Shown in pieces: positions 27,001 through 39,000 of a stretch of DNA of 64,000 nucleotides. A program made the position numbers. This stretch comes from Pseudomonadota bacterium (GTDB taxonomy: Bacteria > Campylobacterota > Campylobacteria > Campylobacterales > Sulfurimonadaceae). The stretch is taken from NCBI GenBank assembly GCA_043797085.1, contig JAZDQA010000013.1, forward strand, positions 241,140-305,139, written 5' to 3'. Positions within the stretch are counted from its first letter, which is position 1, and every line of letters begins with the position of its first letter.

Positions 27001-30000
27001 CTATCTTACCATTTCCCCTCAATCGATAAAACCACCTGTGGTTTTGTATGCTCTTTATCCACCTGAGTCTGCGTAATCGCTCCTGCTGCATCGTACAGAC
27101 GTGAAGTTGTCTCTACCGTAGAAGCCGTGATATTTTTCACGTTAAACTGTAATTTAAACGTTTTATTGAGCCGTTTATTGGCATAGAAATCGAGTGTGCC
27201 GTACCCTTTTTGCGATTGGGATATGAAATACTCCTGCGGATCATCGTATCCACCGACGTAGCGATAAGCGGCTCCGTAGGTGATTTCAGAGCCTTTTAGC
27301 GTGTGATCAAAACCGAGGTTACAGGTAAAATTCGGTGTTTGTAAAAGCTCTCTTTTGACTCCGGTTAGAGTGTTCGTAATCGATGAGTCTTGCAGCGTTG
27401 CATTGGCAAAAATTCCGAACCCTGTGATGTACTCTTTGAGTGATTTTTTAACCTCTAATTCAAGACCCCACAACGATCCCTCTCCAGCATTTTCAGGGGT
27501 TTGTTCATAGCGTCCCGATACGGAGTTAAAACGGATCGCATTTTCGATTTTATCATTGATGGTTCGATAAAACCCGCCGATACTCGCTAAGCCTTTATCC
27601 TCAAAAAAATGTTCGTACCGAAGCTCATAACTCAACGCTTTCTCTTCGTTCAAATTCGGATTTCCGATCACATCGGGGCGATGGATGCTGTTTTCATCGA
27701 GGGTGCTGTTGGTACTCGCCGATAGTTGGCTGAGTCTTGGGAGACGGACGGTTTTAGCAACACTTGCACGGATATTGTCTTTTGGTGTCACCTGAAACAG
27801 TGCGTGCAGAGAGGGCGCGAAGTAACCCAGATTCGACGTTGCACCATAGTCTCTCTCTAATGTTTCATAACGAAGACCCGGGGTAATGACGATCCCCTCA
27901 TTCAGTGTATATTCGTCTTGGATATAGAGGGCGAGCTTGTCCTCTTTCATCTGAATTTTATCGTTCACAGAAGTGACATCTACCCCGTTTAACACCCGTG
28001 TCGTTTCATCGATTTGATCGCTTCTTTTGAGTTCAAATCCGGCTTTGATAAAGTGATCCTCTCGAAGTGCGGAATAATCTCCTTGAAGTCCGTAAAACCG
28101 ACTCAATACATAATCGTGATTTTTTCGGTTGTTAGCAGATGGGGTCGATAATGACTCCAAATCGGCACTCTCTTCAAACGAATGGATTTTTGCCTTCCAT
28201 TCAAAAATATCATCACCAAATCGGTGCTCCGCCCCCAATGCCGACCAAAGCATCGTATTGGTAGCATCGTCGTAACTTTGGTAACGACTTGTCGGAGTGG
28301 CTGAGCCTTCGGTTAGCGTCGTTGAATTAATCCTATCAGTATCATGATTAAACGTCACAGAGCCGTCATAGAGTATTTTAAGGCGTGAAGAGGGGGTGAA
28401 GTTCAGTTTTCCACGCAGTCCTACGGAGCGATTTTTGCTTTTATCGTCACGCTTCTCATTGGTATTTAATGCTATTTTATCGGTAAAAATATCCGTCCGA
28501 TCTACTTTACGGTTTTCAGACGCGGTAAGGTTTGCCAAATACGAAATTTTATCGATTTTCCCTTCTCGTTGAACATACGCGGTTTCACTCAAATCCTCAC
28601 CGTAGGCACCAACGGTTACTTTTGCTAACATTCGCCCCTCTGCCTTTGGTTTTTTGAGAACGACGTTGACGATCCCCCCCATCGATTCGGCAGTGTACTC
28701 TGCCGAACCGTTGGTCATCACCTCGATGCGCTCGATCATGTCGGGTGAAATCTGCTCTAACGGACTAGCACGCTTACTCGTACCCGTCGAAGTCGCCTCA
28801 CCGTCGATCATTACCACCGTGTATCCCTTACCCGGTGCACTAGCGGGTCCTTTGCCATTTGGAATCGTTACCCCAGGGGTGCGTCGGAGAATCTCTAACG
28901 CATTCGAATCCCCATACTGAGTCAATTCCTCTGCTTTGATAATCCGTTTGGCGATGGAATTATCCCGTCGCTCATCGATAGCGGAATACTCTTCGGCGAC
29001 TTGGATTTTTTCTAACGTCACAATCTCTTGCGCACACACACTGCTAATCATAGCGGTAGATGCAAGTATAATTCGATAATTCACAATAGGTTCCTGCTTA
29101 TTTTTGTTTGTCGGTGACAATATAGAGCTGTTCATGCCCTAGACGTTTAAGAACGTCCATCACTCCAACAAAATTTTGAAATGCTGCATCTTTATCGCTG
29201 TAAAGTACAACTGTCATCTCTTTACCACCAGCCACTACACGCTGTTCAAACTCTGCCAAAGTGATCGGAGTTTTTGCCTCATCCAACATTAGAATCCCGT
29301 CTTTTCGGATAGTCAGTTTAAGTTCTGAGGGTTTATGCTCTGCAGCTGTCCCTTTGGCATCAGGCAACTCAACAGGGATTAATCCGGTACGAATAAATGT
29401 CGCCGTCGTCAATACCATGACCAAAAGAACCAGCATAATGTCGATAAAAGGAATGACGTTAATGGAATCAACCCGTTTCATTTTCATAGGTTACCCTCGA
29501 TTTTTATGGGCGCTAATGTCCCATTGTGTCAAAAGTCGTTCCATTTTTCGAAGCAAAATATTGTAAAAAATGATAGCAGGGATAGCAACCACCAGCCCCA
29601 TCGCCGTAGCTTTGAGCGCCAATGCCAATCCGGTCATAATCTTCTTCGGATCAACCGCACCAACATCACCGAGGCTGTAAAACGTAATCATAATCCCCAA
29701 TACCGTCCCAAGCAGTCCCACATAAGGAGCATTGGAACCGATAGTCGCAATCGTACTGACGTTATTACCTAAATCAAGCTCCAACTCCTCTTTGGTCTCG
29801 TAATCATGGATACGTACCGACCCATACGCCATCATTCTCTCGATAAAAAGCGAGAGTGAGGCAACACTCATTAACACCAAAATCCCGATAATTCCATAAT
29901 CAATCGCCGCGTGTGCGAATTCCAACATGTTGCTATTTTCCATTTTTTTCTCCCTGTGTGGTTAATTTTAACGCTTTTCTTCTCTTCTTTTTAAGCCACA

Positions 30001-36000: not shown

Positions 36001-39000
36001 GTCGTCCCCGGAACAGAGCCTGTGGTCACAACACCTACCCCACCCGCTTTCCACATATCATATCGCCCACCTACGTACAACAATAGATCATCATTAACCG
36101 CAATTTGGTCTTGAAGAAAAATTGAGTTCGTAATACTTCTAGCATCAATCCGATCCAGCTCCGCCGTTTTGGTATCCATATTCGTCCAATCCGAAACCGC
36201 GTATTTTTTCTGATGAAGACGCCCAACTTCCGTCGCAACACCCGTAATCAATAAATGGCTATCACCAATAGGAGTAGTCAGCTGTGCTGAAGCATTGGTT
36301 GTACTATTAGGTGAATTACTAAGCGTCCCAGCACCAGAGGTCAATGTTGCCGTTGCACCAATAGCAGAGCTCCAATACTCACGATCAATTTTCCCAAAAT
36401 TGAGACTCAACTTACTGTCTCCCAATTTTCCATCATATCCAGCAAAATAGCGCAATGCAGTATTACCCATCGGAACAGAACCGGCAAAATCTTGTTCTTT
36501 AATCGTAGTCGCTTTGCCGTTTAGATTTAGGCTTGTTGCCGTTGTCCCTATTGCGATTGGATTCCCACTTGTATCAGTCAAATAACTATTGTATCCACGA
36601 TTCAGACTCTTTGCATCGGAATAAGCGAAACCTGCATTCACGGTTGAAGTTGGAGAGAGATCATAATAGAGTTTCGCATGAATATTTTTCTCCATAGAGG
36701 CATTAGTTCCCTTATCCCCGACAATATAAGTAGTTGCTCCCGCCGTTGTGGTGGTTTGTGTCGCACCATTAACAACAACAGCACTACCAGCAGGTGTCCC
36801 AGTAGGTGTTTTGGTTACATACTCGGCGATATATCCTTCACGATAGTTTTCAGAGACTCCAAATACAACCCCAAGACCATTTTTGAATTTATTGCGGTAC
36901 AACGCACTTGCATGATCTCCCGATGCATCACCAAAACCTTTGCCAACATTAAACGACATTTCCTCTTTCGTCGGTGCTTTGGTCGTAATACTAATAACTC
37001 CACCTACTGCGTTACTACCGTATAATGAGGAACCAACCCCCGGCACTACCTCAATACGATCCACATCATCCATTGTAACCATAGACCAGTTAACTTGACC
37101 CGAATAGGCATCGACCATATTCATCCCATCTACCAAGACTGCCATCTTGGTCAATGTTCCCCCTGCACCTCGCATAACAAGATATCCTGTTGCACCAGGT
37201 CTAGAATTACCCAATGCTCCTCCTCGCAGATAAAGCCCAGGGACTTTAGCATTTAACGCATCCCCTATACGCGGTGTGTTCATTTTTTCCATATCTTCAG
37301 CCGTTACTACTGAAACATTCACTGGAGCTTCCAATGTTGATTGCTCAATTTTTGATGCACTTATAGACACATCCCCCAAATTAACCGTTTCAGTAGCATA
37401 GGCGCTACTGCAAAATATAACTGCCGCCATTGATAGCTTAACTACTTGCATTAATATCCTTGTATTAAATAAATCCAAGAATTATTTCAAAGTAGTGTTA
37501 CATTTGTGTTAAGTCTTAACAGTAATGTAACACTTTTCTTTCATACTTACACAAATAAATCTTAGTAAGAAGCTATTTTAATGATGCAATCGTTACCTCT
37601 TTTTTCATTGTTTCTTATTGCATTATCCTATGGTGCAACGGCATGTATGCTCTCGTGTATGCCTATCCTTTCCCCGATTCTTTTAGCCAACAGCGCCACA
37701 CGCCAAGAAAGCCTTCGAGTCCTTATCCCCATCACCGCAGGTCGCATTAGCGGTTATACACTCTTAGCAGTTATTGCCTTCACAGGAGCAGTCTTTGTCC
37801 AATCACTGCTCAAAGATAAAACCTTAATGGGCTATGTTTTAGGAGCTGTAACCCTGCTGCTTGCACTCAAACAACTGCTCGCCATTCGGACAAAACAAAC
37901 CTGTTGCGCTCAAACCACACAACCCAGCAAAAGCACCAATACCACCCTTTTTGCGACGGGACTTCTTCTATCGATGTCCATTTGCGCACCCGTTGCTACC
38001 ATGATGACACTCAGTGCAACCGCTCCCTCATTGGGCTGGGCAGCTTTATACGGATTGTTTTTCGGGCTGGGAGCTACGCTGTTGTGGTTTTTCTTTTTTT
38101 CCGTTGTTCTAACAACCGCACTCAAAGAAAGCCTTAATCACCTATCACGCTATCGACGCACCATTGAAATAATGGCTCCGATTTTATTGGCGTGTGTCGG
38201 AATTTTAATTTTTAATGGATGGATACGACTATGACTATAACCATGACCCCTCAGACCAAAGCTTTTGGACTCTCCTTCGCGTTGCACACCTTAATGGCGC
38301 TTCTTGCGATGTTAGCACTTACGCGGATGTACCATCCTGTTAATCTGGATGTTATCCCAATGAAACATGTCACTCTTGTGACACTATCTCATGTGACTCC
38401 AATGCCCATACAACCCACAATCACACCGCCAACCACAACAATCACACAACCCGCTCCCACACAGCCCATCACAAAACCAATCGTGCCTACCAAAACCCAA
38501 CCTATTGTGACTCAAACAATACCTGTACCCTCCATTCCTGCTGTCGTACATCAAGCTATACCTACAGAAACAAAACCTGTTGTAGTCGCGGAAACAAAAG
38601 CTATACCTGTTCAAGCCGTCATTCCCTCAAAACCAAAAATCGATACAACCTCTGAAAAAAAATTGTTCTATGCCTCATTACGTACAAAAATCCAACAAAA
38701 CCTTCGCTATCCGTTTGCCGCAAGACGTGTAGGGAAAGAGGGAGAAGTTGGTGTTCGCTTCACACTTTCTGATGATGGTTCAATCCGTAATATCTCAGTT
38801 CAACGCGGTGAAGAAATTTTTCATAACGCCGCCAAAGCAGCCGTTGCATCAACCGCCGGTATCGATATTCCTAAAAATCTTATCGACTCTCTGCCAGTAG
38901 AGATGGATTTAACCCTCGAATTTAAGCTTAACTAATATACTATTTAATTATTTTAATTATAATACTAGTGTATTCTATTAAAATACTATCTTGCAAAATT

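Follow-up and report, generated by a model that had tools for sequence, protein, structure and literature searches.

A widespread gene cassette links a double-cubane-cluster protein to TonB-dependent uptake and may serve copper supply

TonB-dependent copper import together with a membrane reductase was shown in 2026 to feed haem-copper oxidases, and the passages cited describe CrtA-CrpH of Bordetella pertussis as a TonB-dependent copper importer paired with a PepSY_TM protein, a putative periplasmic copper reductase, in the service of these oxidases (PMC12914433, PMC13038864). A second path, CcoA-CcoG-CcoI, brings copper to the cbb3 oxidase (Marckmann 2019, cited in PMC13038864 and PMC8267372), and its CcoG, a Fer4_5 membrane polyferredoxin, is treated in these two sources as a cupric reductase. 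DUF4198 proteins are periplasmic metal binders according to the relevant passages of PMC12663993, where the sole characterised member handles zinc. Uncharacterised clusters of PepSY_TM, DUF2271, DUF4198 and TonB genes have also been reported (bioRxiv 10.1101/2021.01.07.425746).

The locus described here lies in a window of 64,000 nucleotides, the whole stretch analysed, from contig JAZDQA010000013.1 (Campylobacterota). As far as CrtA-CrpH is described in the passages above, the two have in common outer-membrane TonB import of what would be a chelated metal, an inner-membrane redox protein, a lack of Fur regulation, a tie to respiratory oxidases and, in some operons, ExbBD/TonB and copper chaperone genes. 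However, the redox protein of CrtA-CrpH is a haem PepSY_TM protein, whereas that of the cassette is an iron-sulfur NapH-like protein, and the cassette adds a double-cubane-cluster protein (DCCP) with its ATPase, a DUF4198 binder and a DsbD_2 protein. With CcoG the cassette shares a Fer4_5-type membrane polyferredoxin with cytoplasmic [4Fe-4S] clusters and a periplasmic beta-sandwich domain, the two being fused in many Campylobacterota cassettes, and a connection to ccoN through a shared regulatory box is a further likeness to the CcoA-CcoG-CcoI path. The NapH-like protein is nevertheless not of the CcoG family, as a TIGR02745 search of genome G000 finds only a separate, canonical ccoG, and CcoG, in the accounts cited, acts on cytoplasmic Cu(II) without an ATP-driven partner. 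The scheme of receptor, membrane electron carrier and periplasmic DUF4198 binder, with an efflux pump close by in some loci, also recalls systems that release iron reductively from ferric siderophores (FoxA-FoxB, the pyoverdine Fpv system) and the PepSY_TM/DUF2271/DUF4198/TonB clusters; the cassette differs from these in its electron carrier, in having neither flavinylation genes nor a Fur box, and in its ATP-driven low-potential donor. To our knowledge, the DCCP of Carboxydothermus hydrogenoformans is a soluble enzyme to which neither a partner nor a natural substrate has been assigned. The window's DCCP resembles it (6ENO, 7YYL) in the seven-cysteine motif and the adjacent BcrAD-type ATPase gene, and finds in it its best solved relative (7yyl/6eno, 223 bits, against 73 for BzdN), but is linked with a membrane polyferredoxin and an uptake system, and its NF040772 score falls slightly below the cut-off (324.6 against 350 bits).

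Gene content and conservation of the cassette

All 11 genes listed in the preliminary description were recovered with their coordinates, strands and families (Pfam, NCBIfam) as claimed. On the minus strand, the cassette opens with a TonB-dependent receptor with plug and barrel domains (TBDR2, 35175..37478), followed by a 317-aa periplasmic protein of DUF4198 fold (34219..35172), the four-helix NapH-like membrane polyferredoxin (33219..34232; Fer4_5 43.8 bits, also Fer4_10), the DCCP (31958..33265; HGD-D 302 bits) and its BcrAD/BadFG-type activase, the ATPase (31155..31961; PF01869 183.5 bits, TIGR00241 228.7 bits against a cut-off of 125.4). A PepSY_TM membrane protein (29933..31123; PF03929 230 bits), ExbB (29491..29943), ExbD (29098..29487) and a second TonB-dependent receptor (TBDR1, 27006..29135) are on the same strand, and the plus strand holds a six-helix membrane protein of the DsbD_2 family (37581..38234; PF13386 58.1 bits) and TonB (38219..38935; TonB_C 42.1 bits). 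The DCCP and activase genes overlap by 4 nt, and a single transcript is suggested by such overlaps, of 4-14 nt, in the window. An ArsC gene lies downstream of the operon and is kept only in the closest relatives.

The cassette was compared across 64 non-duplicate loci with at least 7 kb on each side, from Campylobacterota, Beta- and Gammaproteobacteria and Desulfobacterota. All 64 carry a DUF4198-type and a NapH-like protein next to the DCCP, and 63 retain the order DUF4198-NapH-DCCP. The activase accompanies them at 61 loci, DsbD_2 at 60 and a TonB receptor at 57. A search seeded with the NapH-like protein yielded 79 loci in four phyla or classes, and a DCCP was detected in 98 of the 99 loci examined overall. 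The linkage of the DCCP set is thus stronger than earlier stated: DCCP, ATPase, NapH-like protein, periplasmic protein, DsbD_2 and TonB receptor are conserved together as one unit, a widespread and previously undescribed cassette. A fixed order of NapH-like protein, DCCP, ATPase and DsbD_2 had also been claimed; the first three stand side by side in each of the 20 contexts fetched, but the position of DsbD_2 differs between lineages. The lineage-specific PepSY_TM protein, found in only 4 of the 64 cassettes, and the second receptor are accessories. ExbB occurs in 29 cassettes and ExbD in 31, a TonB gene lies within 8 kb in 24, and in seven no receptor was found within 8 kb. Outside this genome, 300 genomes of the order were examined, and 26 of them encode a DCCP ortholog of at least 57% identity. 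Many hosts are, by name (Gallionella, Sideroxydans), iron oxidisers or come from Fe(II)-rich anoxic water, and RND pumps stand in the same strand-run at some loci (L040, L050).

Predicted docking and the periplasmic partner

The seven-cysteine motif attributed to the DCCP was confirmed, with spacings of x18, x18, x27, x166, x33 and x32 that depart by 1-2 residues from the motif that the Haft preprint quotes from the literature. Counted from an internal Met (residue 13 of the ORF), cysteines stand at 52, 68, 87, 106, 134, 301, 333, 335 and 368, all nine invariant in 24 orthologs; the probable start is at 33229. The activase is nearest to HadI (4eht, 212 bits), with DCCP-R (7yyl_E) at 140 bits.

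NapH models score the NapH-like protein, with its probable start Met at 34190, far under cut-off. It has four transmembrane helices, and by the positive-inside rule the CX3CP, CxxCP and two [4Fe-4S] motifs face the cytoplasm and the periplasmic loops hold four invariant cysteines (37, 48, 163 and 166). In the complex model, the DCCP sits on the cytoplasmic ferredoxin part with an ipSAE of 0.63 (runs 0.65, 0.62 and 0.63; best of three controls 0.00). Among 157 solved complexes, 116 attain this mark, as do 2 of 215 mismatched pairs; these counts are only approximate here because our own alignments were used. The runs have at least 88% of contacts in common, with a partner pLDDT of at least 74, and every DCCP contact on the NapH-like protein (109-121, 242-253, 262-265, 284-286 and 305-318) falls in predicted cytoplasmic parts. 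We know of no solved DCCP/NapH-type complex. The DCCP is predicted to dock on the cytoplasmic iron-sulfur part, and electrons would then run from the DCCP through the NapH-like protein to the periplasm.

The 317-aa protein had been called unknown, and no Pfam or NCBIfam family was found for it; its AF2 model (pLDDT 78) nonetheless has the fold of DUF4198 metal binders. The best Foldseek matches are Zcp 9mhl (E 1.4e-8, TM 0.62) and the DUF4198-Ni entry 9gcb, and the matched structures carry bound Zn, Co, Cu or Ni. The description of the protein as signal-anchored holds for its N-terminal signal-like segment but needs a C-terminal membrane anchor added, a single helix at 281-299 followed by a K/R-rich, conserved cytoplasmic tail. 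With Zcp of Neisseria gonorrhoeae, as far as that protein is described in PMC12663993, it shares fold and periplasmic location, but it is only ~10% identical, has the anchor and tail, and carries two Cys-Cys pairs (37/38 and 172/173) where Zcp has a three-His zinc site. Such pairs are limited to Campylobacterota. Homology links the protein to 750-917-aa Fer4_5::DUF4198 fusions, whose C-terminal part corresponds to it. In DUF4198-type proteins the segment past a conserved Trp bears Cys-Cys, HxGHGGGHxHGG or MGGM motifs, although not universally, several members having no Cys, His or Met there.

Receptors and the regulatory box

Three receptor subfamilies stand directly upstream of the cassette. 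In the TBDR2 subfamily 29 of 32 members directly precede the DUF4198-type gene; none of the five TBDR1 members does, these being the window's own and four from close relatives named Sulfuricurvum, and the PDB match of TBDR1 is a weak one to PirA only (E 1e-8). By profile, the cassette receptors score highest with YncD/PqqU (335/333 bits), against 266 for CirA, 180 for PirA and 166 for FepA; with 194 bits for CrtA (9rvq) and 103 for OprC, they stand at a distance from known copper receptors and fall outside the CrtA cluster. Nor do they show any special closeness to catecholate receptors. The DsbD_2 protein has conserved C-x3-C-x-P (TM1) and C-A-P (TM4) motifs, and some member of its family weakly matches the arsenical permease ArsG model (20 bits).

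The perfect palindrome with 11-bp arms noted in the divergent promoter is present as AGTGTTACATT-N19-AATGTAACACT at 37494..37534. In this putative operator a direct-repeat box, TTAACA-N5-KTAACA, occurs twice in opposite orientation (37496-37512 on the minus and 37516-37532 on the plus strand). The genome holds 12 exact boxes, 10 of them intergenic (shuffle mean 1.65). With at most one mismatch allowed, the box precedes the receptor gene of the cassette at 29 of 34 low-GC loci, and its position ahead of the cassette is conserved in Campylobacterota. Relatives also have it before ccoN, nosZ, a NosL-protein gene and TonB genes: box-preceded operons of cassette genomes include ccoN (G000), receptor-ccoN (G044), DsbD_2-ccoNO (G110), nosZ (G084) and a two-NosL-domain protein (G132), and the ccoN link was not seen in G084, G098 and G132. 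As ccsBA, cytochromes c and a peroxidase belong to the set too, the regulon may be a general low-oxygen respiratory one. The reported absence of a clear Fur box was borne out, since the closest match in the window promoter has 8 mismatches in 19 positions and none with fewer than five was found in 73 upstream regions of cassette receptors.

Copper and the competing substrates

That an ATP-driven reductase is coupled to TonB uptake, as the preliminary description proposed, is a fair reading given the conserved unit and the predicted docking of the DCCP on the NapH-like protein. Copper, or else some other thiophilic metal, is suggested by the box, by the fused or adjacent NosL and SCO1 and by the Cys/His/Met-rich segment of the periplasmic protein. 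In locus L033 the DUF4198 fusion protein contains an inserted NosL domain (56.6 bits); in L115 DsbD_2 is directly followed by a NosL gene, and in L118 DsbD_2 and TonB are separated by a SCO1/SenC gene. Our tentative preference, at somewhat below an even chance, is uptake and reductive processing of a strongly bound thiophilic transition metal, most likely copper for cuproenzymes such as cbb3 oxidase and N2O reductase, under an OmpR-type regulator and not Fur. Which substrate is involved and which way the electrons run are both inferred here. Reduction of Cu(II) needs no very low potential, so copper alone leaves the use of a DCCP unexplained. Further points against this reading are the distance of the cassette receptors from known copper receptors, the members whose segment has no Cys, His or Met, the restriction of the Cys-Cys pairs to Campylobacterota, the zinc role of the characterised DUF4198 protein, the Fur repression of PepSY/DUF4198/TonB clusters elsewhere, the ZnuA and Fur-family genes next to one cassette, the possibly general respiratory nature of the box regulon and the seven cassettes in which no receptor lies within 8 kb. 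Genome G000 has a canonical ccoG, and nosZ was not found in it; co-occurrence with nosZ is loose (17 of 27 cassette genomes, 96 of 274 others, genomes not being independent).

Reduction potentials of Fe(III)-catecholates are very low, beyond ordinary reductases, and only very low-potential substrates would obviously justify an ATP-driven DCCP. Release of iron from ferric siderophores, with DCCP electrons passing through the NapH-like protein, would also suit the window's PepSY_TM protein, whose family includes known ferric-siderophore reductases, the Fur repression of PepSY/DUF4198/TonB clusters in Shewanella and Caulobacter, and the RND pumps of L040 and L050, which could recycle emptied chelator as a pump does in the pyoverdine system. 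We nevertheless consider it unlikely, and the ferric catecholate substrate proposed earlier is unsupported: the PepSY_TM protein is rare, the receptors are as near to other receptors as to catecholate ones, and neither the promoter nor the 73 upstream regions hold a Fur box. The 100 neighbour families sampled contain no siderophore-synthesis or ferric-siderophore ABC-uptake gene but copper chaperone genes instead, and hosts of the Gallionella and Sideroxydans type would live where iron is not scarce. Nickel, cobalt or zinc uptake, with the redox module just keeping periplasmic thiols or a carrier reduced, would fit the Zn, Co and Ni bound in DUF4198 structures, the His-rich segments (for Ni/Zn), the CobN-like and ExbB-like genes after the cassette in two Methylococcales loci and the ZnuA and Fur-family genes adjoining one cassette. 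Yet these metals require no reduction, an ATP-driven DCCP is a costly means of thiol reduction, and copper is the better match to the Met-rich segments and to the links with NosL and SCO1, which leaves this reading improbable.

Small, too, is the chance that an imported metalloid, organometallic or other small molecule (e.g. a Se or As species) passes the inner membrane by way of DsbD_2 and that the DCCP cluster itself reduces it in the cytoplasm, the NapH-like protein merely anchoring the DCCP or feeding it electrons. The Haft preprint, in the parts drawn on here, has DCCPs reducing small molecules at their cluster and their occurrence tracking SelD and an organometallic locus; selD is present in G000, and the weak ArsG match and the ArsC gene point the same way. 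But SelD is common in the order, so that its presence says little, ArsC is confined to the closest relatives, and a quinol-fed NapH-like donor would be thermodynamically unable to reduce the ATPase cluster. The conserved DUF4198 fold and the four invariant periplasmic cysteines of the NapH-like protein also suggest periplasmic chemistry. Very improbable, in our view, is that the uptake and DCCP redox sets are unrelated neighbours under a shared low-oxygen regulator, as the seven cassettes with no nearby receptor and the box ahead of respiratory genes might suggest; the receptor is same-strand and immediately upstream in three receptor subfamilies and four phyla or classes, and the gene overlaps argue against it.

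In the preferred copper reading, a receptor powered by TonB-ExbBD would bring the metal complex into the periplasm, as its family suggests, where the inner-membrane-tethered DUF4198 domain, whose fold is shown, would bind it, probably through the Cys-Cys, His or Met-rich N-terminal segment of that protein. In the cytoplasm, the ATPase would spend ATP on loading very low-potential electrons onto the [8Fe-9S] protein, following the known chemistry of the family. Once charged, the DCCP would sit at its predicted docking site, the NapH-like protein's ferredoxin domain in the cytoplasm, and the relay would lead to the four-Cys site in the periplasmic loops, where metal or ligand may be reduced and released. 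Transfer across the inner membrane, of the metal or of thiol reducing power, may then fall to DsbD_2. Expression would be controlled by an OmpR-type two-component regulator acting on the TTAACA-N5-KTAACA boxes, and not by Fur. Through this cassette the DCCP class gains its first testable job, most likely copper supply.

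Organization and conservation of the cassette

Nine minus-strand genes and two divergent plus-strand genes occupy positions 27006-38935 of the window. The minus-strand run encodes, in order, a TonB receptor (TBDR2, 35175-37478), a 317-aa periplasmic protein (34219-35172), a NapH-like Fer4_5 membrane polyferredoxin, an HGD-D family double-cubane-cluster protein (DCCP, 31958-33265), its BcrAD-type ATPase, a PepSY_TM protein, ExbB, ExbD and a second receptor (TBDR1, 27006-29135). DsbD_2 and TonB are encoded on the plus strand. Near-identical homologs bear the name Sulfuricurvum, which is the probable genus of the source organism. 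The gene set, the seven-cysteine DCCP and the palindrome of the preliminary description were all recovered, based on protein families, cysteine positions and the palindrome at 37494-37534. The cassette genes overlap or are separated by 2-31 nt, which is compatible with a single transcript. Six short contigs from RNA-library run X20 are identical to the window and fall in ArsC/TBDR1, TBDR1, ExbD/ExbB, the gene of the 317-aa (DUF4198-type) protein and TBDR2; their depth is low and DNA carry-over is possible. The remaining parts lack cover in X20, to which we attach no meaning. Runs X3, X8 and X1 contained related strains only. An Rfam scan of positions 20000-46000 found no riboswitch and no other family, and scans with promoter and terminator consensus sequences returned sites no more numerous than in shuffles.

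A gene for ArsC, a glutaredoxin-type arsenate reductase (26589-26978, minus strand; TIGR00014, 141.7 bits), begins 27 nt past TBDR1 on the same strand. The junction is bridged by an RNA-library contig identical to the window (26592-27065), and ArsC keeps its position beside the cassette in the closest relatives only. Directly downstream of it is a CBS-GGDEF diguanylate cyclase gene (25172-26503, minus strand); GGDEF/EAL and HD-GYP genes recur near cassettes and operator sites (loci L046, L148 and L132). Beyond DsbD_2-TonB, four more plus-strand genes lie at 38991-42435. The first encodes a small cytochrome c, the second a 328-aa protein resembling an outer-membrane barrel (C-terminus ...FSFSVLF), the third a secreted protein of 133 aa and the fourth a HAMP-HD-GYP protein. 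All but the cytochrome gene hold the same position in two Sulfuricurvum loci (L054, L055).

DCCP orthologs (57-81% identity) were found in 26 of 300 other genomes of the order and in none of three from the same genus, and 39 further genomes of the order have only a paralog with 29-34% identity. The NapH-like, DCCP and ATPase genes are adjacent in all 20 contexts fetched. In a wider scan with one genome per species and the NapH-like protein as seed, the best 80 of 235 relatives yielded 79 loci from Campylobacterota, Gammaproteobacteria (Sedimenticolaceae, Thiodiazotropha, Thiohalomonadaceae, Methylococcales), Betaproteobacteria (Gallionellaceae, Thiobacillus, Rhodocyclaceae, Comamonadaceae) and Desulfobacterota. 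DCCP was detected in 98 of 99 loci, the remaining one stopping at a contig edge. After removal of two duplicates and with at least 7 kb required on either side, 64 loci were compared. The DUF4198-type protein is present in 64/64 and the NapH-like protein in 64/64, the latter count being partly by construction because the 79 loci were found with that protein; the ATPase is present in 61/64, DsbD_2 in 60/64 and a receptor within 8 kb in 57/64. Less frequent are ExbD (31 loci), ExbB (29), TonB (24), an RND pump (11), a response regulator (9) and PepSY_TM (4). The order DUF4198-NapH-DCCP is kept in 63 of the 64. Three receptor subfamilies occur, each immediately upstream of the cassette, and 29 of the 32 members of the TBDR2 subfamily are directly upstream. 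In some genomes a second receptor/DUF4198/NapH-like triplet occurs that lacks a DCCP of its own, or two DCCP sets have a common ATPase. Judged by these gene comparisons, the cassette is a conserved unit, and TBDR1, ExbBD and PepSY_TM are additions specific to the lineage of the window.

In loci L040, L038, L046 and L050 the cassette shares its strand-run with genes for RND efflux systems (AcrB-type; in L050 they have OEP and HlyD partners). Their distance from the cassette is 10 nt or less in L040 and L050, so that uptake and efflux genes may be co-transcribed. The RND pumps near cassettes could be clearly assigned to neither the heavy-metal nor the multidrug type. Two Methylococcales loci (L128:6120-11017 and L114) encode a 1424-aa CobN-like chelatase and an ExbB-like protein after the cassette DsbD_2.

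The double-cubane protein and its predicted partners

The motif cysteines of the window DCCP are residues 68, 87, 106, 134, 301, 335 and 368 (counted from an internal Met), with additional cysteines at 52 and 333. Their spacings of 18, 18, 27, 166, 33 and 32 compare with the published CX19CX18-19CX29CX166-170CX32-34CX32C, three gaps being 1-2 residues shorter. The motif cysteines are invariant across 24 orthologs, in agreement with the double-cubane motif first proposed for this protein. The score against NF040772 is a near miss (324.6 bits, cut-off 350), and the next model, BzdN, reaches 81 bits. Among solved structures the C. hydrogenoformans DCCP (7yyl_C/6eno_A) scores best at 223 bits, followed by BzdN (73) and HadC-type proteins (50). 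By profile score, the nearest solved relative is thus a DCCP and not a dehydratase or benzoyl-CoA reductase subunit. We assign the protein to the double-cubane class, with an [8Fe-9S] cluster and ATP-driven reduction as predictions. The ATPase passes TIGR00241 (228.7 bits, cut-off 125.4) and is nearest to HadI (4eht, 212 bits), the activator to which it had been likened in the preliminary description. Cysteines are found in its NDRCAAGTG and SSTCAVFAES stretches; we take these, after HgdC, to be the ligands of a bridging [4Fe-4S] cluster.

Directly after the cassette ATPase of a Sulfurimonas locus (L120:13125-17831) lies the gene of a 1568-aa protein with BcrAD_BadFG and DUF2229 domains. A distant DCCP paralog (29-31%) of genus g18 has one in-frame stop, TAG in five genomes and TAA in one (G226, G237, G215, G248, G160 and G204), and could be a shared pseudogene or a case of recoding.

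The Fer4_5 protein has the architecture of NapH (four transmembrane helices, CX3CP, [4Fe-4S] motifs). Its scores against the NapH equivalogs are too low (NF007013, 69.4 bits, cut-off 234; TIGR02163, 68 bits, cut-off 213), and on this basis it is NapH-like, not NapH. According to the positive-inside rule, the N-terminus, the CX3CP loop and the C-terminal part with CxxCP and two ferredoxin motifs are cytoplasmic. Four invariant cysteines that are extra relative to NapH, Cys 37, 48 and the pair 163/166 (as CxxCP), are predicted by the same rule to face the periplasm. Identity with the cupric reductase CcoG/FixG was rejected: a TIGR02745 search of the source genome, G000, misses the window gene and matches C9:74197-75555 (471 bits) and a weak site on contig C12. 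An AF2 model of the NapH-like protein was unusably poor (pLDDT 59). DsbD_2 (PF13386, 58.1 bits against 24.9) has six helices with conserved C-x3-C-x-P in TM1 and C-A-P in TM4.

Complex prediction for DCCP and the NapH-like protein gave an ipSAE of 0.63 (runs 0.65, 0.62 and 0.63), the best of three controls reaching 0.00. Among solved complexes 116 of 157 attain this value, and among mismatched pairs 2 of 215 do, counts that apply only roughly here because our own alignments were used. The runs have at least 88% of contacts in common, with a partner pLDDT of at least 74. On the NapH-like side all contacts, residues 305-318 among them, fall in the predicted cytoplasmic loop, the ferredoxin motifs and a conserved C-terminal helix, and on DCCP they lie around residues 308-332, between the cluster ligands Cys301 and Cys333/335. 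The model supports binding of DCCP to the cytoplasmic Fe-S domain of the NapH-like protein.

The 317-aa protein has a hydrophobic N-terminus, a single C-terminal membrane helix and a K/R-rich tail. It has 70 homologs, of which all organism-named ones are from Campylobacterota; nearly all are annotated as hypothetical and two as LPXTG-anchor proteins. Pfam PF10670 (DUF4198) matches neither this protein nor any other in G000. The nine best Foldseek matches of its AlphaFold model (pLDDT 78) are all DUF4198 structures (Zcp 9mh* and 9gcb), with E-values of 1.4e-8 to 1.7e-6 and TM scores of 0.58-0.63 on the target. Computationally, the modelled fold is that of DUF4198 metal binders. The matched structures hold Zn, Co or Cu (Zcp) or Ni (an Ideonella protein), and a recent study describes DUF4198 proteins as periplasmic metal binders (PMC12663993).

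In most Campylobacterota relatives the DUF4198-type domain is the C-terminal part of a 750-917-aa fusion whose N-terminal part is a second NapH-like Fer4_5 module. These fusions score 19-35 bits against PF10670, only that of L046 passing the 34-bit cut-off. Across phyla the family keeps a cytoplasmic tail motif, YRRRR..P..EV.FDE, and a nearly invariant Trp directly followed by a variable segment rich in metal ligands. The segment is Cys-Cys in Campylobacterota and of HxGHGGGHxHGG, MGGM or HEHHH type in proteobacteria, and several members have none; in fused proteins it is a MGMM-type run or an entire NosL domain (L033, 56.6 bits). The N-terminal segment has a median Cys+His+Met content of 0.11, against 0.055 in the rest of the protein. 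The Zcp metal site consists of three His, and no His or Cys is conserved in the alignment of 66 members.

The cassette operator and its other targets

The inverted repeat with 11-bp arms noted earlier in the promoter is present at 37494-37534. It consists of two inverted boxes, each a TTAACA-N5-KTAACA direct repeat with an 11-bp period, the layout of OmpR/PhoB-type sites. A repeated element was considered and rejected: a BLAST search of the genome gave just two other copies, each of them partial and located in a promoter. With up to one mismatch, the box precedes the receptor gene of the cassette in 29 of 34 loci of low GC content; among high-GC loci the figure is 6 of 39. Exact boxes number 12 in G000 (shuffles: mean 1.65, maximum 4), and the intergenic 7.2% of the genome accounts for 10 of these. 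The other boxes of G000 precede ccoN (C13:194976), a ccsBA-type cytochrome c synthase gene (C5:182701), a PGM-amidohydrolase-regulator-kinase-ExbBD-2OG oxygenase-receptor operon (C7:18256), a receiver-only gene (three boxes, C11:137614-137993) and another TonB receptor (C13:37020). The C7:18256 operon encodes an OmpR-type regulator (C7:20733-21398) and a short histidine kinase beside the ExbBD, 2OG oxygenase and receptor genes, and the regulator is 43% identical to one encoded next to the cassette in other genomes.

In five complete genomes with a cassette, the box occurs 4-8 times (controls 0-3), and each of the five has one or more copies at the cassette itself. Further targets include the regulator/kinase pair, a protein with two NosL domains and a receptor (G132); receptor-ccoN and receptor-PepSY_TM (G044); nosZ (G084); DsbD_2-ccoN-ccoO, a receptor, a di-haem peroxidase and an efflux pump (G110); and ExbB-ExbD-TonB and a PqqD/ATP-grasp/decarboxylase set (G098). 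As a conserved target ccoN was rejected: the box is directly upstream in G000 only, precedes the gene located before ccoN in G044 and G110, and was not detected near ccoN in G084, G098 and G132.

The box-led DsbD_2 protein of G110 (L155:3170-3964, 264 aa), encoded directly upstream of ccoN-ccoO, carries HCxGMCGG in helix 1 and has a tail rich in Cys, with four KCG repeats; it may be an inner-membrane copper carrier for the cbb3 oxidase. The box-led set of G098 (L145), a PqqD-like protein, an ATP-grasp enzyme and an Orn/DAP-type decarboxylase, may make a small molecule derived from a peptide, for instance a metal chelator.

Against the E. coli Fur consensus, the window has no site with three or fewer mismatches and the best promoter site has 8/19, so the lack of a clear Fur box reported in the preliminary description stands. 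None of 73 regions upstream of cassettes has a site with fewer than five mismatches to the same consensus. These motif scans indicate a non-Fur operator common to several operons.

Candidate substrates and a possible mechanism

We propose, as a possibility that we consider more doubtful than probable, that a transmembrane 'reductive crowbar', with DCCP as its cytoplasmic engine, frees a thiophilic metal in the periplasm. ATP hydrolysis would drive extremely low-potential electrons from DCCP into the NapH-like Fe-S wire and on to the periplasmic four-cysteine site, where copper or another thiophilic metal, delivered by the dedicated TonB receptor, would be freed from sulfide clusters or a tight chelator. 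We infer both the outward electron flow and the role of DsbD_2, which may move electrons or metal.

Copper is the metal we favour, at slightly less than an even chance. It is suggested by the NosL fusions, the ligand-rich segment, the box regulon, the CcoG-like architecture and the neighbouring genes. One representative of each of 100 gene families, out of 266 candidates within 4.5 kb of cassettes, was surveyed; those related to metals were SCO1/SenC (L118, between DsbD_2 and TonB), NosL (L115, right after DsbD_2), CutA1, ZnuA accompanied by a Fur-family gene, two cytochromes c and Fe-S assembly genes. A recent precedent is CrtA (B. pertussis), which imports chelated copper for haem-copper oxidases; a PepSY_TM protein follows CrtA in >75% of loci (PMC12914433). 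Another report describes CrpH as a putative periplasmic copper reductase overlapping in function with CcoG (PMC13038864). However, the cassette receptors are neither CrtA- nor OprC-like: a profile of 22 of them scores 335 bits with YncD, 333 with PqqU, 266 with CirA, 194 with CrtA (9rvq) and 103 with OprC. Single-sequence PDB searches gave weak, generic plug matches only, and the idea of a CrtA-like downstream subfamily was dropped. Moreover, reducing copper requires no low-potential donor, the box regulon may be just respiratory, G000 has a normal ccoG and no nosZ, and the sole studied DUF4198 protein handles zinc. Co-occurrence of nosZ with the cassette is weak, and SelD is present and uninformative.

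Iron seems unlikely as the cassette metal, and siderophore genes were absent from the 100 neighbour families sampled; some other metal has an equally small chance. We would rank no higher an imported non-metal or metalloid that is reduced in the cytoplasm. Uptake of PQQ, suggested by the top scores of YncD and PqqU, was set aside because single sequences miss YncD and PQQ requires no low-potential reduction. That the modules are merely chance neighbours is very improbable. Returning to copper, named cassette hosts are mostly denitrifiers and oxidisers of sulfur, iron or methane that live where oxic and anoxic zones meet; copper is held in sulfides there, which could create a need for forceful reduction.

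Each component of the cassette comes from a known family, and receptor plus membrane reductase is an arrangement known for iron and, since 2026, copper. New here would be the combination of an ATP-driven double-cubane reductase, predicted to dock on a NapH-like wire, with a membrane-anchored DUF4198 binder. We found no prior description of this cassette in the literature searched, where most subscription journals are absent. Double-cubane [8Fe-9S] proteins are, according to the Haft preprint, widespread, reduce acetylene, azide and hydrazine in vitro and have no known natural substrate. In the cassette they have fixed partners, one of which is predicted to dock with them, and a regulator site; its culturable hosts include Azonexus caeni, Azovibrio restrictus and Parasulfuritortus cantonensis. 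Their natural role thus becomes testable by ordinary genetics and biochemistry. The cassette is also a candidate for copper entry in Campylobacterota; the C. jejuni import route is stated to be unknown in PMC8267372. TonB-dependent copper import for respiratory oxidases would thereby be widened to sulfidic and microoxic habitats with copper locked in sulfides. If the crowbar reading is true, [8Fe-9S] proteins would gain their first physiological role and Campylobacterota their missing route of copper import, and ATP would be seen to power redox chemistry outside the cytoplasm in a new way.
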